Positions 38,895 to 48,675 of a stretch of 64,000 nt of DNA are shown piece by piece. The notes beneath the pieces were generated by a model, which saw only the letters and a list, made by a program, of their open reading frames with translations, was not told the DNA's origin and did not search any database. Position 1 is the stretch's first letter; each line of letters begins with the position of its first letter. Origin of the DNA: an uncultured Syntrophaceae bacterium (GTDB lineage Bacteria; Desulfobacterota; Syntrophia; Syntrophales; PHBD01); assembly GCA_964578535.1 (NCBI GenBank), contig CAZODI010000008.1:1815-65814 (forward strand), in the 5' to 3' direction. The translations under genes were made by a program, and so were the position numbers.

Positions 38895-38910
38895 TGTGAC
38901 GGACGTCACA
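38895..38910. promoter_or_regulatory. Crp box (perfect consensus)
   Basis: TGTGA-CGGACG-TCACA, overlapping the crp-like stop codon, 103 nt upstream of the 89-aa gene. Confidence 0.7.
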
Positions 38911-39616
38911 CAAAATCGACTTTATGAAAATTCGGCGTGATGAGGATCCGCCGTTTCTCCAGCACGGAGATCTCCCCGGCCAGCTCCAGCCGCTTGAGGA
39001 TGCGGCTGACCGTCTCCCGGGAAAGGGACGCATAGTCGGCCAGTTCACTGTGGGTCATCCGGAGCCGGATCGCCGTGCCCCGCGCGTCCCTCGATCCGAA
39101 GCGGGACGCCATGTGGCCAAGGACCGCCCGGACCCGGTCTTCCGCCCGCTGCAGGTTCAGGACCTTGAGCATGAACCAGGAATCCCGCAGGCGCTCGCAG
39201 AGAAGGGAGATGATCTGCCGGACGGCGATCGGATTCTTGAGGAACCGGGTCTCAAAATCCGCCCGGCCGAGGAACCCGACCCGCGTATCCTCCAGGGCGA
39301 TCACCCTCGCCGGAGACGTCTTTCCGTCCAGGAGAGCCATTTCGCCGAAGAAATCGCCGCGCTTGTGGACGGCCAGGATCTGTTCCCGCCCCTCCTCGTC
39401 GATTTGCGCGACCTTGACCCGTCCTTCGTAGATCACGTAGAGGCAGCGCGGGGTGTCCTCCTCGAAGAGGATCACATCGTTCCGGCGGTAGTTCCTCTCT
39501 CCCATGACCATCCGCAGTTCGGCCACGTCCCCTCCGGGCAGGCCCCGGAAAATGGGAATTTCCTGGAGGAAAACGTTGGGGCGAATGCTCATGGCCGGCT
39601 GTTTCATCGTTGCCAT
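38906..39616 (-). CDS. Crp/Fnr family transcriptional regulator
   Basis: cNMP-binding barrel (FFGEMALLDG..SPA..A), HTH with LSRETVSR recognition helix; no Fnr-type Cys cluster. Confidence 0.93.
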   Translation of the reverse strand: MATMKQPAMSIRPNVFLQEIPIFRGLPGGDVAELRMVMGERNYRRNDVILFEEDTPRCLYVIYEGRVKVAQIDEEGREQILAVHKRGDFFGEMALLDGKTSPARVIALEDTRVGFLGRADFETRFLKNPIAVRQIISLLCERLRDSWFMLKVLNLQRAEDRVRAVLGHMASRFGSRDARGTAIRLRMTHSELADYASLSRETVSRILKRLELAGEISVLEKRRILITPNFHKVDFV

Positions 39617-39628
39617 TGCTGGAAAACC

Positions 39629-40411
39629 TCACGAACGCCTTTTGGTTGATTTCCGGGAGTTCCAATTGTGCCGCCGGTGATCCTGCTCCAGGCTCTCGAT
39701 CTGCCCGGCCGTCAGGATCCCCTTCCGGACGAAGAAATCGCCGAACCGGGGCTGCAGCAGTTTCTGCCATGCCGTCAGGCGGCGCAGCTGTCCTGCGTCC
39801 ATGTACCCGAGGCGGACGGCACACTCACCGAAACGCTCGCCGGACCGGCGGCGCTTCAGGATGACGAGAATATCTCCGCGGTCCAGCCAGCCCCACCCGC
39901 AGGCGATCACACCGACCGGAGGCCTCTGCCTCTGCTGCCATACCACGGCGTCGACCAGGATCCGGTGGGTAATCATGCCGGCGTAGTAGAGATAACGGCC
40001 GAAGAGGAGCCTCCCCCCGGGAATCGGCCCCGCGTGGACGTAATCCTGCACCGGGTCGCGCTTCCTTGGCGCTCTCTTCCCGAAAGGGGGGTCCTCCCCC
40101 GGCGCGGGGGACGCCGTACGGCGCGGATTTCCTTCGATCAGGCGGAACCGGGAGGGATTCTCCAGGTAGAGGCGGAGCCGTTCAAAAGCGGACTGGACCT
40201 CCTTGAACTGCTCCTCGAGAATGCGGGATTCGACGGCCAGCGAGAGGGCGCGATCCGGGTGGGTCTCCCGCGCCCGTTTCCGATAGGCCGCTTTCAAACC
40301 GGACATCTGCAGGGAATGGTTCAGAAACTGGACAGAGACGTCGGTCTGTTTTCCGAAAAGGACCTGACAGGCTTCGAACAGGTCGGTGGCGTGGATTTCG
40401 TTCTTTTGCAA
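39629..40411 (-). CDS. J-domain protein with C-terminal MshEN-like repeats
   Basis: LKAAYRKRARETHPDRA...F.EVQSAFERL J-domain; four FG/VG-x6-G motifs; TTG start after AGAGGA assumed (ORF extends to 40498). Confidence 0.82.
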   Translation of the reverse strand: MQKNEIHATDLFEACQVLFGKQTDVSVQFLNHSLQMSGLKAAYRKRARETHPDRALSLAVESRILEEQFKEVQSAFERLRLYLENPSRFRLIEGNPRRTASPAPGEDPPFGKRAPRKRDPVQDYVHAGPIPGGRLLFGRYLYYAGMITHRILVDAVVWQQRQRPPVGVIACGWGWLDRGDILVILKRRRSGERFGECAVRLGYMDAGQLRRLTAWQKLLQPRFGDFFVRKGILTAGQIESLEQDHRRHNWNSRKSTKRRS

Positions 40412-40664
40412 GCCGGTTCCTCTTTTGCCTCTGCGCAGATGTGAAAACGGGTCGGCTTCCCGTGGCAGCATTCGCGGAAGGCCTGTTTCCCATGCCATTA
40501 AAAGAAAGCCCGTTTCCTTGTCAACGCAAAAAGCAATCCCGCAGCCGGGATCCCGGGAACCGGCCGGTTCAGGACCGACTGGGGAAGGAAGCCGCCGTTT
40601 GCGGCAGGGAGGGGGTTTGAGGGAGGGTGAGCCGCGAATCCGTCGCGGCCCGGAACGGGGAAAC

Positions 40665-43019
40665 CTACTTGATGCAGACCCTCCGGACTTGCCGGAAGTC
40701 GGTGATGCCCCGCAGGGCTTTCTGGATGCCGTCCTGGAGGAGCGTGGACATCCCCTCGGACATGGCCTTGTCCCGCAGCGTCTCGACGGTCTCGCTCTTC
40801 TGGATGAGCCGTTTGATTGGGTCGCTCGCGATGAGAAGCTCGTGGATGCCCACGCGCCCCTTGTACCCGGACCGGTCGCAGAGGTCGCAGCCCCGGGGCC
40901 GGTACAGCGTCAGGTCGCTCGTGAAGGGAACGGCCAGCTCCTCAAACCGTTCCCTGCCGTAACTCTCCGCCATTTCGTCGAATTCTTTGCGATCGGGATG
41001 ATAGGGCTCGCGGCAGTTTTTGCACAGTGTCCGGACCAGCCTCTGGGCGAGGACGCCAAGAAGGGCATCGGCGAAGTTCAGGGGGTCGATGCCCATGTCG
41101 AGCAGCCGGATGATGGTCTCGGGGGCGCTGTTCGTGTGCAGGGTGCTGAAAACCAGATGGCCCGTCAGGGAGGCCTCCACCCCGGTCTTGGCCGTTTCAA
41201 AATCGCGCATCTCCCCCACCATGATCACATCCGGATCGGCCCGGAGAAAGGCCCGCATGGCCGTGGCAAAATCGAAGCCGATCTTGGGCTGCACCTGAAC
41301 CTGCCGGAGTCCGTACTGGGTGATTTCCACGGGGTCCTCGGCCGTCCAGATCTTCTTCTCCGGCGTGTTGATATGCCGCAGGGCCGCATGGAGGGTCGTC
41401 GTCTTTCCCGAGCCCGTAGGCCCGACCACCAGGATCATGCCGTAGGGCTTCTCGCAGATCTTCAGGAGTTCCGAATAGTTCCTCTCCAACATGCCCATGG
41501 CCTCCAGGGGCAGCGTTTCCCCCTTGGCAAGAAGCCGCATCACGACATCTTCGACCCCTCCCTGGGTGGGCAGCGTCGCCACGCGAAGCTCGATCTCGTC
41601 TCCAGGGGAGCGGCGGAACTTGATCTTGCCGTCCTGGGGAATCCGCTTCACCGTGATGTCCAGGTTGGACATGATCTTGATGCGCGACACGAGAGCGGCC
41701 CGATAGTTGAAGGGAACCGTCTGGTACACCGAGCAGTCGCCGTCGACGCGGAAGCGAACCTCCACGTTCTTCCGGCCGATGTTGGGCTCGACGTGGATGT
41801 CCGACGCCCGCCGGCTGACGGCGTCGTTGATGATCTTATTGACGAGCAGCATGATCGCGCTGTCCGACTCCGTGACGGCTTCTTCCCCGTCCTCACTTTC
41901 CTCCTCATCCACACCGTCCAGCCGGCCGATGATGTCCGAAATCGACGTTTCATCCCCATGGACCTGATAGAAATAGTTGATGAACCGGGAGATGTCCTCC
42001 GGAAGGGCCACGTCATAGCGGATGTCTTTTGTCTTCAGGAGGTTTTCAATCATGTCCCGCTTGATGATGTTGTCCGGGTCGCTCACCAGGATGTGGACGG
42101 TTCCGTCGGTCTTCTCGATGGGCACCCAGAGCTCCCGGAGCAGGTATTCCTTGTTGAGCCTGCTCAGGAGATCCGCGGGGATGGGGAACCGGTCGCTGAA
42201 CTGGACAACGCTGCAGCGGAAATATTCTTCCAGCGACGCTCCGAGATCTTCCTTCGAGATGCCGTGTTTCCGCATCAGGAAACTTTCCACGGTCTCCTTC
42301 TCTTCCCGGGCTTCTTCGCAGGCACGATCGAGCTCGTCTTCCTTCAGGAATCCTTTCCGGATGAGGGAGTCGAAGCGCGTCTTTCTCCGGCGGGCATAGC
42401 GTGCGTGGTTGGAAAGCGCGATGGCAAGGACTTCGGAAATCTCCTGGAGCAGCACGGGCTCCTCTTCGATGAACCGGCCGTCCCGCCCCGACTTGTTGAT
42501 CACCTCGATGACGCCGATGACCTCGCCCTCGTGAACGATCGGCGCGGCCATGACCTGCTTCAGGCGGACATTCGACCGGGCGTCCCGGTCGACCGCCAGT
42601 TCCAGTCCCTTGCAGCGCTTTTTCATCTCGGCCGGATCGTGGACGTCGGCGATGTTGATCAGGAAGCCCGTTTCGGCCACGTACCCGGGAATCGTCCGGT
42701 TGTTGACGGCCATCCTCTGTTCCCGGAACAGGCGCCCGGCCTTGGTGGTCGTGAAGATTTCCCTTCGCTGGCGGTCGACGGCATAGATGTTCACTGCTTC
42801 CACGCGGAAAAGATCCACGATCCGCCTGCTGCAGTCGGTGAATATCTGCGCCACGCTCTGGGAGGCGTAGATTTCGTTCGTGATGTCCTGCAGCTCGTTC
42901 TGGAGGCGGAGGATCTCTTCCAGTTCGTTGATTTCATGGAAGGGAACGTCTTTGCCGACGGGATGGGATCCCTGGGACGGCAGCGGATGGAGAGACTCCG
43001 CAGCAACGGACGATGTCAT
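40665..43019 (-). CDS. GAF domain-containing PilB/GspE family secretion ATPase
   Basis: N-terminal GAF (VIGVIEVINK..F..EE); RASDIHVEP, GPTGSGKTT, TAEDPVE, DPDVIMVGEMRD, TGHLVFSTLHTN, CKNC...CDLC. Confidence 0.93.
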   Translation of the reverse strand: MTSSVAAESLHPLPSQGSHPVGKDVPFHEINELEEILRLQNELQDITNEIYASQSVAQIFTDCSRRIVDLFRVEAVNIYAVDRQRREIFTTTKAGRLFREQRMAVNNRTIPGYVAETGFLINIADVHDPAEMKKRCKGLELAVDRDARSNVRLKQVMAAPIVHEGEVIGVIEVINKSGRDGRFIEEEPVLLQEISEVLAIALSNHARYARRRKTRFDSLIRKGFLKEDELDRACEEAREEKETVESFLMRKHGISKEDLGASLEEYFRCSVVQFSDRFPIPADLLSRLNKEYLLRELWVPIEKTDGTVHILVSDPDNIIKRDMIENLLKTKDIRYDVALPEDISRFINYFYQVHGDETSISDIIGRLDGVDEEESEDGEEAVTESDSAIMLLVNKIINDAVSRRASDIHVEPNIGRKNVEVRFRVDGDCSVYQTVPFNYRAALVSRIKIMSNLDITVKRIPQDGKIKFRRSPGDEIELRVATLPTQGGVEDVVMRLLAKGETLPLEAMGMLERNYSELLKICEKPYGMILVVGPTGSGKTTTLHAALRHINTPEKKIWTAEDPVEITQYGLRQVQVQPKIGFDFATAMRAFLRADPDVIMVGEMRDFETAKTGVEASLTGHLVFSTLHTNSAPETIIRLLDMGIDPLNFADALLGVLAQRLVRTLCKNCREPYHPDRKEFDEMAESYGRERFEELAVPFTSDLTLYRPRGCDLCDRSGYKGRVGIHELLIASDPIKRLIQKSETVETLRDKAMSEGMSTLLQDGIQKALRGITDFRQVRRVCIK

Positions 43020-44407
43020 GGAAGCCGGACCTTATCCATACCGACAGGCTCCACCATGGCCTGGACGACTCCCGGCGGCTCCTGGATAAACACGATCATG
43101 AACGGGGTCTCGCCTCCCGGGGGGACCGCGTTGTTCGCCTGCGGACCGGACCGGGCGGCCGAGAGAGCCAGGTGGAGATCCGGCTCTCCAAGGGTCTCCA
43201 GCTGATCGGCGGTCAACCCGCTCCCGCAGGAAACCATCCGCGCCGCCACGAGCACACCCCGGGAATCATAAAGCTCGCCGCGGATCCGGATCCCCGAGAC
43301 GCCTTCATGCCCCCTGTTGAACGCCATGCCCTCGACAACCCTGATTTCCCGGCCGAGAGCCACGTTTCTGACAAACCGGTGCCGCAGATTGACAATCCCC
43401 ACCTGCTCCGCCACGGGATTCCGGTCCGGCCTTCCAACCTCCAGGTATTGGCCGGCGAAGGGGACATTCACGGACAGCCAGCGGACCAGCCCCTGCCCGT
43501 CGGCGGGCCTGGCCAGGAAAAAGCCGAGGGCGGAGAGGGCCAGGGCAAGGCACAGGAGCAGGCCGATCAGAACCGGCGCGCGCCGTGACGTTCCACGGCC
43601 GGACGAAAGGACGGAACCGCTCCCCTGCTTCACCTCTTCCTTCCCGATATCCTCCGCCGTCTGCAGGGACAGACCGTTCTCGGCGGCCGCCTCTTCGATG
43701 GTTTTCCTGTCGATCCGCAGGGTCCGGTCCATTTCCGGTACGTCCCTGCGCACTTCCGGCGCCTCGGCCGACCGGCCGGCGTCCTGGAATTCCACGAAAG
43801 CGGGCGGGTCCTGCTTCGCCGGGGGCTCCGGCGGCTCCTCCGGCACGCCTTCAGCGGCCGCATCTTCCACATCCGGAGCCGGCTCCTGCACCGCCTCCAC
43901 CCCGGGCATGACGGGTGCCGCCGCCGTCTCCATTTCCAGCTTCAGGACCGGCGGCTCCTCCCGCACGACTTCAGCGGCCTCCTCATCCAGATCCGGGGCC
44001 GGCTCCTGCACCGCCTCCGCCCCGGGCACGACGGGCGCCGCCGCCGTCTCCATGTCCAGCTTCGGGACCGGCGGCTCCTCCCGTCTGCCTTCCACGGCGA
44101 ACTCTGCCGGATCCGATATGGGCTCCTGCAGCACCTCTTCCTGCAAAAGGGATAAGGGGCCCGCATCGTCCGTTTCCGGTTTCTGCCGGGGCACATCCTT
44201 TTTCTTAACCGGAACGGTGATGTCGAATTTCCCGAAAATCGCCGGATACGGCGTCACGGGCGTGACGGGATCGACGGGATCGACGGGATCGGACGGCTGT
44301 ATGTCCTCCATCGGCAGCGACGGGCCTGCGGCTGAAAATGTGGATAAAAAAGCCTCCAGTTCCTGCTTTTCACGGACCAGATCGAATGTCTCGTTCGGGA
44401 TGCTCAT
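43016..44407 (-). CDS. Membrane protein with acidic Pro-rich linker and C-terminal DUF3426-like domain
   Basis: Low-complexity N-terminal half, TM (VLIGLLLCLALALSALGFFL), C-terminal I.G.L.D..G...A....CG...VPPG...PFMIVF. Confidence 0.7.
   Translation of the reverse strand: MSIPNETFDLVREKQELEAFLSTFSAAGPSLPMEDIQPSDPVDPVDPVTPVTPYPAIFGKFDITVPVKKKDVPRQKPETDDAGPLSLLQEEVLQEPISDPAEFAVEGRREEPPVPKLDMETAAAPVVPGAEAVQEPAPDLDEEAAEVVREEPPVLKLEMETAAAPVMPGVEAVQEPAPDVEDAAAEGVPEEPPEPPAKQDPPAFVEFQDAGRSAEAPEVRRDVPEMDRTLRIDRKTIEEAAAENGLSLQTAEDIGKEEVKQGSGSVLSSGRGTSRRAPVLIGLLLCLALALSALGFFLARPADGQGLVRWLSVNVPFAGQYLEVGRPDRNPVAEQVGIVNLRHRFVRNVALGREIRVVEGMAFNRGHEGVSGIRIRGELYDSRGVLVAARMVSCGSGLTADQLETLGEPDLHLALSAARSGPQANNAVPPGGETPFMIVFIQEPPGVVQAMVEPVGMDKVRLP
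43850..44083 (+). repeat. Intragenic 120-bp direct repeat (two copies, 40 aa)
   Basis: Lines 43861-43980 and 43981-44083 are near-identical; protein EEPPV(P/L)KL(D/E)METAAAPV(V/M)PG(A/V)EAVQEPAPD. Confidence 0.9.
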
Positions 44408-44486
44408 CTTTGCCTTTCACTCCATGGAATCCGGTGTACCGCCGGTCCCGTGCACGTCGGAACGAATCCGGCACCCGGCCCGCCGT

Positions 44487-44645
44487 TCAGGCTTTCATAG
44501 CCTTAAGACCCTGCACGGCCGCATCCGGAACGGTGATCCGGATGACGTCGCTGCATTTCCTGCAGACCCGGATGATGACGGATTCCCTGATCTCGTCGGG
44601 TTCGATAACGATTCTTTCCCCGCACTCCTCACAGAAGACAATCAT
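44487..44645 (-). CDS. Small zinc-ribbon protein (52 aa), not in ORF track
   Basis: MIVFCEECGERIVIEPDEIRESVIIRVCRKCSDVIRITVPDAAVQGLKAMKA; CxxC-x19-CxxC, MJ0042-type. Confidence 0.75.
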   Translation of the reverse strand: MIVFCEECGERIVIEPDEIRESVIIRVCRKCSDVIRITVPDAAVQGLKAMKA

Positions 44646-44726
44646 GTCTCGGCAGCTCTCTTCGTCAGCATTTCAAGGTTCGCCCACCGGCGCGTCCGGC
44701 CCTTTTCTTTCCAGGCCCCGCTCCCG

Positions 44727-45884
44727 TCAAAGGACCGTCCCTGACCCCGGGTGCGAGGCTCCTTTGCCCCCCAGCCCCAGCTCCGCCCTCAGCGCCTCGA
44801 ACTCGCTGCGGATCATCTTCCGGACCTCTCTCCGGATCTCTTCCAGTGCGCAGGCAAAGGCATCGTGCGGCTCCATGGCCTTCACGGCCTCGCAGAAATC
44901 CGAACCGGTCTCTTCTTCCCTCTCGGGGTGTTGCTCCGCTTCGCTTTCTTCGGCCGTCAGCGTCACAGCAGGGGAGGCCGGGAGTCCGGCCGCGGGCGCA
45001 GGCTCGACATCCTCTTCCCCCGACGCCGGAACCGCCTCGGTCAAGGGCTCCCGGCTGTCCCCGGCGACAGGGACCCGATCCTCCCCGGCGGTCGCCCCCG
45101 TGCAGGAGGAAAGGTCGATCTTCTCCACCCAGTTCCTGTACTTCCCGATATCGACCACCAGGACGGCCCGCTTTGCCTCCTCCGCCATGGCCTTCGAAAG
45201 GAGAACCCGTTCCAGGTCGTCATATACGGAGAAAAGCAGCTTCACCGACTCGGTGTGGGAATCCCCCTGTTTGACCTGGATATAGCGCTCCAGGAAGCGA
45301 AGGATCCGGAGGAAGCCGAGAACGGTGCGCTCGTGGCGGTACAGCTCCTGCAGTCCGTTCAGCTCCCTGTCCAGCCTGCCCAGGATGGCATCGCTGATTT
45401 CCCATTCCAGCGACAGAATGATGCTTTTCAGCGTCTTGACCGGCGAGAACAGGGCCGGCGTGACCGTTTCGATATCGCCGAAAATCTGCTCGAAACGTCT
45501 GTCTCCGTCCTCGACTGCGCAGGGGTCCGCCGATCCGGGAGCCGATTCGATTTCCTCGAGACAGGGATGGGCTGCATCGGATTCCGGAACCGGATCCGGC
45601 GTTTCTTCCTCAAGAAGGATGTGATAGCGTCTGCCCGGATCGGGCTCCGGGGATTCGGCATCGCCGCTCACGTGTTCGTTCATCATGTCCGGAACTGCTG
45701 CCCTATCCCCTTCCCCACCGGCCTCCAGTGGAGTCTCAGCGCTGATTCCGTCCAGAATGGCCCTGGGATCGGCGGGATCCGGTCCCGCATTACGGCCGCG
45801 TTCCACGGAATCAAGGCCGATTCCGAACAGGACATCGAGGCGGTTTTCCACTTCCCGAACGAATGAAGATTCTTTCATCACCAA
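44727..45884 (-). CDS. Hypothetical acidic protein adjacent to mglA (possible scaffold)
   Basis: Overlaps the mglA stop; N-terminal helix EVENRLDVLFG, central helical domain SIILSLEWEISD, C-terminal helix IRSEFEALRAELG. Confidence 0.7.
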   Translation of the reverse strand: MVMKESSFVREVENRLDVLFGIGLDSVERGRNAGPDPADPRAILDGISAETPLEAGGEGDRAAVPDMMNEHVSGDAESPEPDPGRRYHILLEEETPDPVPESDAAHPCLEEIESAPGSADPCAVEDGDRRFEQIFGDIETVTPALFSPVKTLKSIILSLEWEISDAILGRLDRELNGLQELYRHERTVLGFLRILRFLERYIQVKQGDSHTESVKLLFSVYDDLERVLLSKAMAEEAKRAVLVVDIGKYRNWVEKIDLSSCTGATAGEDRVPVAGDSREPLTEAVPASGEEDVEPAPAAGLPASPAVTLTAEESEAEQHPEREEETGSDFCEAVKAMEPHDAFACALEEIRREVRKMIRSEFEALRAELGLGGKGASHPGSGTVL

Positions 45885-46495
45885 TCCCCGTTCTCCAGTT
45901 CCTTTTCCAGGGAGGCCATGGTCAGCGAGATGATCTTCTTCAGGGTTACAACGACGTTGTCTCCCTCCACGGCACTGGCTTCGAATGACGGCGCTTTCAA
46001 TACGCCGTTGAGATCCCGGTCCAGGGTCTCGACATCCAGCACTTCGATCCCCTGCTTTGCCAGATCCCGCTTGTTGTACTGGATGACCAGCGGCATCTCG
46101 AAAATGTTCTTGTTGTAGAGGGCGAGGTTCTCCTGGAGATTCATCAGGGACGCCACGTTCTTGTTTCTTCGCTCCGCCTCTGAATCGGCGACGAACACGA
46201 CGCCGTCCACCCCCTTCAGGACGAGCCGCCTCGTCGAGTTGTATTTCACCTGGCCCGGCACGGTGTACAATTGGATTTTCACGTCGTACCCGGCGATCTT
46301 GCCGATGTCGAAAGGAAAGAAATCAAAGAAGAGGGTTCGGTCGCCCTGTGTCTTGACCGTCACCATTTCGGAATTGATCTGCTCGCGGCACCGGCTGTAG
46401 ATGTATTCCAGGTTCGTCGTCTTGCCGCATCTTCCGGGACCGTAATAGACAATCTTGGCCTGGATGACCCGATCCTTCAGGTTGATGAATGCCAA
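45878..46495 (-). CDS. mglA: MglA Ras-like small GTPase
   Basis: KIVYYGPGRCGKTTN, DRTLFFDF, LYTVPGQ, QYNKRD, EASA. Confidence 0.95.
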   Translation of the reverse strand: MAFINLKDRVIQAKIVYYGPGRCGKTTNLEYIYSRCREQINSEMVTVKTQGDRTLFFDFFPFDIGKIAGYDVKIQLYTVPGQVKYNSTRRLVLKGVDGVVFVADSEAERRNKNVASLMNLQENLALYNKNIFEMPLVIQYNKRDLAKQGIEVLDVETLDRDLNGVLKAPSFEASAVEGDNVVVTLKKIISLTMASLEKELENGDW

Positions 46496-46568
46496 CGTCC
46501 GCTTCCTCCCTGCCCGACGCCTTCCGCGCTTTGCCTGCCCGGCCTGGTCCGGCCGGGTGATCCTGTTC

Positions 46569-46958
46569 CTAATCCAGAACCCGGGACAGCTCCTGGATGA
46601 CCTGGGCCATCTTCAGCCTCAGAAATCCAAGGGTTACCTCGTTGTCAAAGATGTTGACCAGCAGGAATTCTTCGTTCACCCGGCTGAAATAGATGCTCTC
46701 TTTCTGCCCCTTGTGAAAGAGGAGCGAGAATTCTTCCTCCCCGACGATCCTGGCCATGCTGCACATCGCTCCGAAATTGGCCGCAGCGAGTGCGGCCAGC
46801 GAATACATGTCCCGCGTCACCTGCCCGTTGTCGACCGTCACGATGATGTTGCCGGCCATATCGATCAGCATGGTGTTCTGGACACCCGACCCGATCAGGT
46901 TCTTCTGCAGGGTGTCCTGGATCCTGTCGAGGTGCTGACTGCCGAGGATCAGGCTCAT
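46569..46958 (-). CDS. mglB: MglB roadblock/LC7 GTPase-activating protein
   Basis: LIDMAGNII, LAALAAANFGA...ARIVGEEEF..LFH.G..ESIY, FDNEVTLGFLRL; directly upstream of mglA. Confidence 0.9.
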   Translation of the reverse strand: MSLILGSQHLDRIQDTLQKNLIGSGVQNTMLIDMAGNIIVTVDNGQVTRDMYSLAALAAANFGAMCSMARIVGEEEFSLLFHKGQKESIYFSRVNEEFLLVNIFDNEVTLGFLRLKMAQVIQELSRVLD

Positions 46959-47083
46959 GGCGACATCTCTCCCGGGCGGCGGTGGCCCGCGTGCATGTGT
47001 TTCTCCATCATCCTGTCAACTCCCGGTGATGCGCTGCCGTTCCGGCGGCGTCCGTGCCGCGGCCTGCCGCGGAAAGGCGCGCA

Positions 47084-47284
47084 TCAGTGGCTGATGGTGT
47101 TCAGGTTGCTCCGATCGAGGATCAGGTTGGCGGTTTCCTTCAGCTTCTTCACCATCTCCTCGGTATCCTTCATCTGGGCCGCCATGGACTGGGAAATTCC
47201 CGTCCTGGTCGCCAGCTCCATTCGTCCCTTGAGACCCGCCTGCTCCATGACGATCTCAAAGATCCGGACCATTTTTTCTCCCAT
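47084..47284 (-). CDS. Small conserved hypothetical protein B (66 aa)
   Basis: RBS AAGGAAGGGG; MGEKMVRIFEIVMEQAGLKGRMELATRTGIS...; paralog of 48691-48888. Confidence 0.75.
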   Translation of the reverse strand: MGEKMVRIFEIVMEQAGLKGRMELATRTGISQSMAAQMKDTEEMVKKLKETANLILDRSNLNTISH

Positions 47285-47304
47285 CGCCCCTTCCTTTCGC
47301 CTCT

Positions 47305-47676
47305 CTAGGAAACGACCGCATCTTCGAATGCGTTGATGATGCTGGGCAGAACGATATTCAGAAGCAGCCCAAGCTTGACCTGTTTCTTGTTGACGACGAT
47401 CGCCCACTGGTAATCGCCGAAGGGAATGGCCAGGATGCCCATGTTCCCGGCGACGTCGATGTAATAGTACTGGCCCAGCTCCACCGGATAGGTCTTCAGG
47501 CCCTCCCGGATGGACGCAGTGATTTCATTGAGCAGCGTGGCTCCGGCCGTATTGGACCGCTCCGTCGCCACCAGCACCTGCCCGTCCTCCGTAGAGACGA
47601 TGCTCGACGCAAGCAGCCCGTCTCCCAGATCCTTCTTCAAGCCTTCCAGGCAACCGTTCAGTTTCTGTATGTTCAT
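47305..47676 (-). CDS. Roadblock/longin-like protein
   Basis: RBS GGAGG; DLGDGLLASSIVSTEDG...LGLLLN pattern; homologous to C-terminus of 47773-48675. Confidence 0.75.
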   Translation of the reverse strand: MNIQKLNGCLEGLKKDLGDGLLASSIVSTEDGQVLVATERSNTAGATLLNEITASIREGLKTYPVELGQYYYIDVAGNMGILAIPFGDYQWAIVVNKKQVKLGLLLNIVLPSIINAFEDAVVS

Positions 47677-47772
47677 TACGCCTCCCCTTTAGAATGTTGG
47701 ATTCTCCTGCTTTACCATTCCCCGATTCCCGTCTTTCCGGGAATACAGTGCCGTCCCCTGCCCGCGGATCCT

Positions 47773-48675
47773 TCATCCGGACGGATCGCCCCGAGGCGGG
47801 ACCGCTCCATCACCGCCCGCTTCAAACGTCCTGGCAGCCTTGGGAACGATGGCGTTCAGGACCAGCCCCAGAGAGCATTTTGCGCTGTCGAACAGCATAC
47901 CCAGCTGATGCCCGTCGAAAAGAAGAACCATGAGCGTCAGCCCGTCCCTGAGGTTCATGATATAATGGCTGCCGAGCCCCTTCTGTTCCGGATCCCGTCC
48001 GAAGGCGCTCCGGAGGGATTCCGTCAACTGGATGAACAGCTGGGCCGTTCCCAGGGTTTTTCGGTCATGATGGGAAGCCAGGACCGTCCCGCCGTGAAGG
48101 TCCGCGATGCTTGCCGACAGGAGCGCATCCCCCATGTCCTCGCGAACGACCCGAAGGCACTGCTTGAACCGGTCTTCCCCCCTTCCGGGGGCTTCCATTT
48201 CCGCATCCGCGTCGGCTTCCGCTTCCTCCGCCGCCTCCGCACCCTGCCCGCCGGCCGCCTCGTCGCACCGCCGCGAAGACTCCATCAGGATCGACATGAG
48301 GCTCTTCTCGATCTTCCTGGTAAAGCCGCCTGCATCGACAATCCTCCGGATGTTGAGCCGGACGTTCTCCCAGGAGACCATCTCCATTGCGGCGTCTTCA
48401 GCCTCCAGGCCGTCGCAGGCGGCGTCGTAGAGGGCTCCCTGAACGAAGCAGAAGCGTCCCTGGCGGTCGGCGTCCCGGTAGACTTCCAGGATGCATGTCT
48501 GCTGGTCCATGGCGATGACCTGGAGAAAACTCGCCACCGGAAGGCCGCAGATCGGCCAGCGCTGCAATTCCTCTTTTGAGCCCTGTTTTTCCACGTGCGA
48601 CTGGGTCTCCGAAGAACCGTCATTGTGCACGATCAACCTGAGTTCTCTCCTGGCGGCGCCTTCCACTGGCCTCAT
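47773..48675 (-). CDS. DUF4388 domain fused to roadblock-like domain
   Basis: LPVASFLQVIAMDQQTCILEV...GRFCFVQGALYDA...AAMEMVSW; C-terminal DMGDALLSASIADLHGG...LGLVLN. Confidence 0.8.
   Translation of the reverse strand: MRPVEGAARRELRLIVHNDGSSETQSHVEKQGSKEELQRWPICGLPVASFLQVIAMDQQTCILEVYRDADRQGRFCFVQGALYDAACDGLEAEDAAMEMVSWENVRLNIRRIVDAGGFTRKIEKSLMSILMESSRRCDEAAGGQGAEAAEEAEADADAEMEAPGRGEDRFKQCLRVVREDMGDALLSASIADLHGGTVLASHHDRKTLGTAQLFIQLTESLRSAFGRDPEQKGLGSHYIMNLRDGLTLMVLLFDGHQLGMLFDSAKCSLGLVLNAIVPKAARTFEAGGDGAVPPRGDPSG

Follow-up and report, generated by a model that had tools for sequence, protein, structure and literature searches.

A widespread family of J-domain proteins carrying two tandem MshEN_N-type units

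The locus and its product

The stretch of DNA analyzed here (the window) comprises 64,000 nt of contig CAZODI010000008.1, positions 1,815 to 65,814 of the forward strand, from an uncultured Syntrophaceae bacterium (NCBI GenBank assembly GCA_964578535.1). On its minus strand lies a gene, here called the J-MshEN_N gene or simply the J gene, for a small protein that begins with a J-domain; sequence, profile–profile and fold comparisons support the view that the whole C-terminal half of this protein is made up of two tandem units of the MshEN_N type. MshEN_N is a four-helix, two-motif module that binds one molecule of cyclic di-GMP (c-di-GMP), as in MshE, PilF and NfrB. Motifs 1 and 2 form what we call pair 1, and motifs 3 and 4 form pair 2. 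Residue numbers follow the 289-aa form of the protein, which starts at the first ATG (40498).

39629..40498, minus strand: J-MshEN_N gene, longest open reading frame (ORF), 289 aa from the first ATG; coordinates include the stop codon
40160..40390, minus strand: J-domain, residues ~37-113, with helix I (DLFEACQVLFG), a basic helix II (KAAYRKRARET), the HPD tripeptide and helix III (LEEQFKEVQSAFERL)
40253..40261, minus strand: HPD tripeptide (H80, P81, D82), the Hsp70-activating signature
40022..40159, minus strand: Pro/Arg/Lys-rich linker, residues 114-159, variable in length and sequence across the family
39935..40006, minus strand: motif 1, LFGRYLYYAGMITHRILVDAVVWQ, residues 165-188, aligning with MshE R9-Q32; G167 and Q188 kept, Leu at position 1
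39848..39919, minus strand: motif 2, PVGVIACGWGWLDRGDILVILKRR, residues 194-217, aligning with MshE R38-Q61; G196 invariant, Pro at position 1, Arg at position 24
39764..39835, minus strand: motif 3, RFGECAVRLGYMDAGQLRRLTAWQ, residues 222-245; R222, G224 and Q245 canonical, Thr at position 21 versus Leu in the family
39677..39748, minus strand: motif 4, RFGDFFVRKGILTAGQIESLEQDH, residues 251-274; R251 and G253 canonical, Glu at position 21, His at position 24
39665..39670, minus strand: H277-N278 pair, family-specific and nearly invariant, one helical turn beyond motif 4

The true start codon is probably the TTG at 40411, which would give a protein of 260 aa (39629-40411), because the relatives at 77% identity or less start no earlier than the position of residue 30 and because a GAGG sequence (40422..40419) lies 7 nt ahead of this TTG; the 289-aa form is shared only with one relative, P0001, at 96% identity. 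A preliminary description of the locus had given exactly the shorter span, and its agreement with both the homologous N-termini and the GAGG-preceded TTG indicates that this span is probably the true extent of the gene.

The HPD J-domain that the same description reported is present: H80-P81-D82 is invariant in 150 aligned relatives, and R73, on the basic helix II, is invariant among the 28 closest ones. Pfam PF00226 (DnaJ) matches residues 64-108 with 27.5 bits versus a gathering score of 27.8 (E 3.4e-6), a precomputed PF00226 match is present in 24 of 27 relatives, and a profile of 28 relatives matches solved J-domains with an E value of 1.9e-7. The AlphaFold2 model places J-domain helices at residues 37-48, 56-62, 65-78, 81-87 and 91-113, with block means of the predicted local distance difference test (pLDDT) of 84-96, and a Foldseek search with the protein model listed J-domain structures with probabilities of up to 0.82. 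A scan of Pfam and NCBIfam found nothing beyond the J-domain that would indicate class A or B: no Gly/Phe-rich (G/F) region, zinc finger or DnaJ_C. The DnaJ equivalog models cover only residues 63-108, at 22-23 bits versus cut-offs of 338-377. Since the G/F region, zinc finger and DnaJ_C were not found, the protein is by its sequence features a class C (type III) J-domain protein. Within the linker that follows, residues 124-146 have pLDDT values below 50 in the model and are predicted to be disordered.

Two tandem MshEN_N-type units

Each of the four 24-residue motifs begins precisely where the preliminary description had put it (residues 165, 194, 222 and 251), with spacers of 5, 4 and 5 residues between successive motifs. 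Both pairs conform to the MshEN_N motif that we tested, (R/K/L)hGxxhhxxGhhxxxxhxxxhxxQ in two copies joined by ~5 residues. By the relaxed pattern that Wang et al. 2016 published (PMC5013675), motifs 1 to 4 match at 10, 10, 10 and 9 of the 11 defined positions, and exactly these four windows in the whole protein score 9 or more; in 2000 shuffled versions of the sequence, windows of this quality numbered 0.19 on average and never more than 3. The preliminary description needs one correction here, in that none of the four fits even the relaxed pattern perfectly. Position 1 is occupied by L165, P194, R222 and R251, an initial Arg being confined to motifs 3 and 4.

Comparisons of profiles reinforce this assignment. 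In the hidden Markov model (HMM) search suggested in the preliminary description, the NCBIfam model NF053729 ("cyclic di-GMP-binding domain, MshE-related") scored the protein at an E value of 2.6e-9 and 36.7 bits, just under its cut-off of 38, and the Pfam MshEN entry PF05157, which spans MshEN_N plus MshEN_C/T2SSE_N1 and models mainly the C-terminal subdomain, gave no match at E <=1. When aligned with hhalign, pair 1 and pair 2 are homologous to each other (94.7% probability, E 5.8e-8), and with solved MshEN_N domains both align in register at the sequence level (pair 1, 94.2%, E 1.1e-7; pair 2, 97.3%, E 1.9e-11). Profile matches among PDB sequences included PilF (E 3.6e-5) and MshE (E 1.8e-4).

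AlphaFold models the whole protein with a mean pLDDT of 83.7 and residues 160-288 as eight helices with pLDDT >94. In a Foldseek search with this whole-protein model, Vibrio cholerae MshE with c-di-GMP (5htl_A) was matched with a probability of 1.00 and a root-mean-square deviation (rmsd) of 1.4 Å over 56 columns, and PilF GSPII-B with c-di-GMP (8pdk_B) with an rmsd of 1.9 Å over 55 columns; structure prediction, which the preliminary description had named as a check, thus recovers the four-helix MshEN bundle for part of the eight-helix region. Judging by identity count, the modeled unit behind the MshE match is most likely pair 2. The predicted models show a short-long-short-long helix pattern in both pairs, and for pair 1 it is this pattern together with its homology that suggests a four-helix fold. 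Only 15 residues follow motif 4, and from residue 166 onward the model is helical throughout; the alpha/beta subdomain MshEN_C/T2SSE_N1 is absent, and the protein has MshEN_N alone, twice.

An unnamed family of Thermodesulfobacteriota

A word-indexed search returned 27 clusters, mostly from Syntrophales, for which the best available name was "J domain-containing protein". The family is much larger by exhaustive HMM search, which found at least 664 representatives of 50% identity clusters at E <1e-30, proteins of about 250 aa; nearly all of the best 150 matches are ~200-355 aa long and cover essentially the full profile. Relatives are carried by at least 257 GTDB species genomes. The best 80 of these 257 come almost entirely from metagenome-assembled genomes (MAGs) of Syntrophales/Smithella, Desulfatiglandales, Desulfobulbia and Desulfobacterales, and the nearest (94%) is from an uncultured Syntrophaceae bacterium. 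NF053729 recognizes 149 of 150 family members at E <=1e-3, with a best E value of 4.8e-25, and through the MshEN_N region 50 of the 150 also match the EpsG model and 27 the NfrB model. This is a widespread and so far unnamed family with a fixed architecture, almost all of it in Thermodesulfobacteriota. Two relatives fall outside that phylum, both on very short contigs: L012 (2.6 kb, a "Spirochaetota" MAG; 58% identity) and L023 (4.4 kb, a "Prolixibacteraceae" MAG; 42%). For these, mis-binning is more likely than real spread.

The putative ligand pocket

The hhalign register allows each pair to be mapped onto the residues of MshE, the second residue of each entry being that of MshE:

Pair 1, motif 1: L165 = R9, F166 = L10, G167 = G11, Q188 = Q32
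Pair 1, motif 2: P194 = R38, G196 = G40, I210 = L54, L214 = L58, R217 = Q61
Pair 2, motif 3: R222 = R9, G224 = G11, L238 = L25, T242 = L29, Q245 = Q32
Pair 2, motif 4: R251 = R38, G253 = G40, I267 = L54, E271 = L58, H274 = Q61

Conservation of the motif positions, computed family-wide on 175 sequences, concentrates at ligand-contact positions. Gly at position 3 is found in 93-100% of members in all four motifs (93% in motif 1), and positions 2, 17 and 21 are hydrophobic throughout the family. Gln at position 24 is kept in 98% in motifs 1 and 3 (in motif 1 it follows W187, also 98%), while the same position is R or K in motif 2 (R 64%, K 18%) and variable in motif 4 (L 24%, Q 20%, H 18%). Position 1 is mainly Leu in motif 1 and R, K or P in the others. 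To us this pattern looks like selection for a ligand pocket, though with one Gln per unit.

The residues at position 1, the stacking position of the ligand contact set, can be judged against PilF, where GSPII-B has K167 and L196 at this position, its K167L variant has a dissociation constant (KD) of 2 nM, Leu or Lys gives tighter binding than Arg, and GSPII-C binds with a Pro (P335) at position 1 of motif II (PMC11731258). In PilF, then, Leu and Pro in this place permit binding in the nanomolar to sub-micromolar range, and L165 and P194 are not disqualifying. An early reading in which pair 1, having no position 1 Arg, was necessarily a non-binder was dropped, as Leu, Lys and Pro all bind well in PilF. 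We consider it reasonably likely that at least one unit binds c-di-GMP, and binding may differ between pair 1 and pair 2. A regular-expression scan for GGDEF or HD-GYP signatures, applied to the long ORFs of the window only, found none.

A further set of near-invariant residues lies outside the canonical MshEN contact set (39665..39940): W187, R192-P193 in the spacer of pair 1 (xRQRP), Q249 in the spacer of pair 2 and the H277-N278 pair after motif 4. They could belong to an altered ligand site or to a surface that contacts a partner.

Genomic neighborhood

The genes and candidate signals around the J gene are as follows:

38906..39616, minus strand: Crp/Fnr-family regulator (cyclic nucleotide-binding plus helix-turn-helix), starting 12 nt past the J-gene stop codon
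40497..40524, minus strand: promoter-like pair, a perfect TTGACA (40524..40519) and TTTAAT (40502..40497) with a 16-nt spacer
40526..40552, minus strand: terminator-like hairpin plus T-run, stem 40552..40535, tail GCTTTTTGCG, located after the ATPase stop codon and ahead of the J gene
40665..43019, minus strand: GAF-MshEN-T2SSE (PilB/GspE-like) ATPase, the upstream neighbor of the J gene
40665..48675, minus strand: co-directional seven-gene block, from the PATAN/DUF4388 gene to the GAF-MshEN-T2SSE ATPase
43016..44407, minus strand: DUF3426 gene, 463 aa
45878..46495, minus strand: Ras/Arf-like small GTPase gene, followed by that of a 385-aa protein without identity
46569..46958, minus strand: Roadblock/LC7 gene
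47773..48675, minus strand: PATAN/DUF4388 gene, followed by that of a 123-aa protein without identity

We surveyed the neighborhoods of 88 loci by tblastn with 13 proteins of the window and by de novo clustering of neighbors within 5 kb. The ATPase adjoins the J gene in 5 of the 88 (L005, L006 and L009-L011), all of them relatives at least 73% identical, and only in these does the J gene occur together with the seven-gene block and the Crp gene; once identity drops to 64% or less, its surroundings are unrelated. The de novo clustering revealed no neighbor conserved across the family within 5 kb at the 88 loci. Pairing with the Crp/Fnr regulator is likewise confined to the closest clade (5/88; for example L005:10784-11494 and L006:1327-2037), where the two genes are probably co-transcribed as a bicistronic unit, in this clade only.

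The gap between the ATPase and the J gene is 166-254 nt. The terminator-like hairpin within it is a consensus match only, two such sites occurring in the region versus 2.0 expected by chance. The promoter-like pair was read from the sequence, as the scanner, which accepts a -10 element only with A as its second letter, made no call; the upstream ATG at 40498 overlaps the -10 element TTTAAT. Taken together, the terminator-like and promoter-like sites suggest that the J gene has a transcription start separate from that of the ATPase, although as consensus matches they are not proof.

Several features of these surroundings deserve record in their own right. The seven-gene block, conserved in L005 and L009-L011, has the look of an MglA/MglB-type polarity module coupled to a PilB-like ATPase; pilin and secretin genes are missing from its vicinity. 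Its DUF3426 protein contains an internal near-duplicate Pro/Glu/Ala-rich segment (EEPPVPKLDMETAAAPVVPGAEAVQEPAPD..., recurring as EEPPVLKLEMETAAAPVMPGVEAVQEPAPD...) and is 463 aa long here versus 312 aa in L005, the repeat region appearing expanded here. The MshEN_N region of the ATPase (residues ~217-270) is degenerate, with TRF.. and TVE.. in place of RLG, an NF053729 score of only 16.3 bits and no 24-residue window matching at 9 of the 11 relaxed positions. Elsewhere in the family, the Smithella clade has a TPR protein of ~295 aa directly downstream of the J gene (23/88 loci, e.g., L018:1093-4489; median gap 163 nt), convergent with it in 15 of the 23, and at 14 Smithella-clade loci an HATPase_c protein and a REC-TPR protein come next, a clade-specific synteny. 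At two loci of ~45% identity (L001:7650-9632 and L007:6371-8792), a ParA/MinD-like ATPase (250 aa) and a 405-437-aa protein without a Pfam match lie directly upstream of the J gene.

A possible second-messenger input to Hsp70

To our knowledge, MshEN is a cis-regulatory ligand sensor in every characterized case (MshE, PilF, NfrB), and cis control of the J-domain is therefore the simplest reading of the fusion. In this protein a flexible linker connects a class C J-domain with two MshEN_N units, and we propose, with moderate confidence, that these units give the Hsp70 system a cyclic-dinucleotide input. A cyclic dinucleotide (c-di-GMP or a related one) would be bound by at least one MshEN_N unit; binding would alter the conformation or the association state of the eight-helix module; and that change would set whether, where or on which client the J-domain triggers ATP hydrolysis by DnaK, acting through exposure, localization or client choice. 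The second messenger would thereby feed directly into the Hsp70 system. The J gene behaves like a unit of its own, accompanied in this clade by the Crp/Fnr regulator. A more specific version, in which a cyclic dinucleotide (c-di-GMP, possibly 3′3′-cyclic GMP-AMP, 3′3′-cGAMP) binds the duplicated MshEN_N and directly switches the J-domain on or off, we put forward only tentatively. The two units, not being identical, might provide two affinity thresholds or read two ligands.

A number of observations weigh against this proposal. On the structural side, a Foldseek search with the isolated model of pair 1 (64 aa, pLDDT 87) retrieved no MshEN structures, its output being three insignificant and unrelated matches, although for so small a query we do not count this against the fold; the arrangement of the J-domain relative to the MshEN_N units has no confident prediction (predicted template modeling score 0.47); and the NF053729 score of the protein falls slightly short of the cut-off. 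In the pocket, the terminal Gln is missing from the second motif of each pair (R217 and H274), and the hydrophobic residues expected at position 21 of pair 2 are replaced, within this protein's own clade, by T242 and E271 here. PilF offers a parallel: in GSPII-A, which does not bind, His and Arg occupy the two Gln positions, and only constructs that carried H33Q, S39R and R62Q regained binding (PMC12002112). Finally, the survey of the 88 neighborhoods brought out no conserved neighbor or partner that would indicate a client.

The main rival takes up these deviations. It holds that the MshEN_N units are nucleotide-blind relics, comparable to PilF GSPII-A and to XpsE, and that the eight helices serve as a rigid scaffold for dimerization or for holding a protein client that the J-domain then passes to DnaK. 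Non-binding MshEN domains with small motif deviations are indeed documented (PMC5013675, PMC12002112), the pattern [RK]..G..Q is present in both motifs of pair 1 in none of 175 members and of pair 2 in 11 of 175, and the family-specific invariant residues that the canonical motif does not cover (W187, R192-P193, Q249, H277-N278) could point to a different interface. A blind scaffold does not, however, sit easily with the near-universal position 3 Gly of all four motifs, where an Ala sterically blocks binding by GSPII-A, nor with the retention of the position 24 Gln in motifs 1 and 3 and of the hydrophobic triads family-wide; moreover, substitution of Q32 in MshE is reported to have changed binding less than fivefold. 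We regard this alternative as unlikely, yet of all the rivals as the one to be taken most seriously.

Among related deltaproteobacterial lineages 3′3′-cGAMP is in use, and the ligand could be this or another cyclic dinucleotide, or the two units could have different ligands or affinities. The units do differ systematically at positions 1 and 24, and MshEN_N binds cGAMP, albeit weakly (KD 3.3e-4 M; PMC5013675). Yet we found in the MshEN literature no MshEN domain that prefers another ligand, and the guanine-reading motif positions are hydrophobic and alike in all four motifs. We judge this variant improbable.

Less probable still is the proposal that goes back to the preliminary description, in which this protein senses c-di-GMP and brings DnaK to the adjacent GAF-MshEN-T2SSE ATPase in particular, or to the machinery around it, perhaps to assemble or remodel the hexamer. 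The two genes are neighbors on the same strand here, in four close relatives and on one short contig, and an input provided in trans would make sense for an ATPase whose own MshEN_N is degenerate. Against this, adjacency is restricted to those few relatives, being lost at 64% identity and in all more distant members; the intergenic gap with its terminator-like and promoter-like sites separates the ATPase from the J gene; and the architecture is kept in many genomes and contexts without a T2SSE ATPase within 8-10 kb. We rejected a role as dedicated accessory of the adjacent PilB-like ATPase on the grounds that the neighbors are not conserved across the 88 loci, and service to that ATPase is left as a low-probability option for this clade only.

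The last alternative, that the motifs look like MshEN_N by coincidence or that the ORF is no real gene, could appeal to two scores slightly below curated cut-offs (PF00226 and NF053729) and is refuted by hundreds of full-length homologs, by the shuffle, HMM and hhalign statistics and by a confident structure model.

If the cyclic-dinucleotide reading is correct, Hsp70 targeting or activity would be a primary output of second-messenger signaling. Effectors of c-di-GMP are still greatly outnumbered by the enzymes for its synthesis and breakdown. Chaperones have no established place among its outputs; the PilZ-DnaK fusions of Myxococcus, in which ligand control is putative, are the only cases that come close. 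The family would then add an effector class to the syntrophic and sulfate-reducing Thermodesulfobacteriota, a group in which c-di-GMP has received little study. A small soluble protein of two modules also offers a simple test system for second-messenger gating of Hsp70 recruitment, and hundreds of "J domain-containing protein" entries could be annotated with the tandem MshEN_N module.

Comparison with known systems

The preliminary description knew of no characterized J-MshEN fusion, and we too found no description of one: neither the MshEN paper nor its supplement (PMC5013675) uses the terms "DnaJ", "J domain" or "chaperone", MshEN, T2SSE, PilZ and c-di-GMP go unmentioned in the main text of a census covering 280,000 J-domain proteins, and full-text literature searches returned only unrelated co-mentions and the PilZ-DnaK work. 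The J-domain and MshEN_N are each well known; their conserved combination is a new domain architecture.

With the MshEN_N domains of V. cholerae MshE (PDB 5HTL), Thermus thermophilus PilF GSPII-B/C (PDB 8PDK) and Escherichia coli NfrB, our protein shares the two-motif bundle with a 5-residue spacer, the Gly at position 3 and the hydrophobic residues at positions 2, 17 and 21, at an rmsd of 1.4-1.9 Å. Unlike them, it has the module twice in tandem and without MshEN_C/T2SSE_N1, with a J-domain as fusion partner where theirs is an ATPase, glycosyltransferase or signaling domain, and it has the terminal Gln of the second motif of each pair replaced and carries the family-specific WQ-xRQRP and HN signatures. 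Wang et al. 2016 also described MshEN_N lacking MshEN_C, and duplicated MshEN_N, among (MshEN_N)2 tandem and stand-alone MshEN_N proteins (for example, the N-terminus of Methylobacillus EpsG and Bdellovibrio Bd2402), although none of the many fusion architectures listed there includes a J-domain.

From the side of the chaperones, the class C J-domain proteins DjlA, CbpA, HscB and AtcJ share with this family the HPD tripeptide, the basic helix II, the lack of a G/F region, zinc finger and DnaJ_C, and a C-terminal specificity module that is not that of DnaJ; in contrast to theirs, which is a membrane anchor, a DNA-binding or an IscU-binding domain, the specificity module here has the fold of a second-messenger receptor. 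The nearest precedent is provided by the PilZ-DnaK and PilZ-DnaJ fusions of Myxococcus: in CsdK1 and CsdK2 of Myxococcus xanthus and in related PilZ-DnaJ/DnaK fusions (PMC10313047, PMC8316039), a c-di-GMP receptor domain is likewise placed on a component of the Hsp70 system, an arrangement that suggests control of chaperones by the messenger. The characterized PilZ fusions attach to Hsp70 itself, and ligand dependence is putative there too; in the family described here, which belongs to a different lineage, a helical MshEN_N bundle takes the place of the PilZ beta-barrel.

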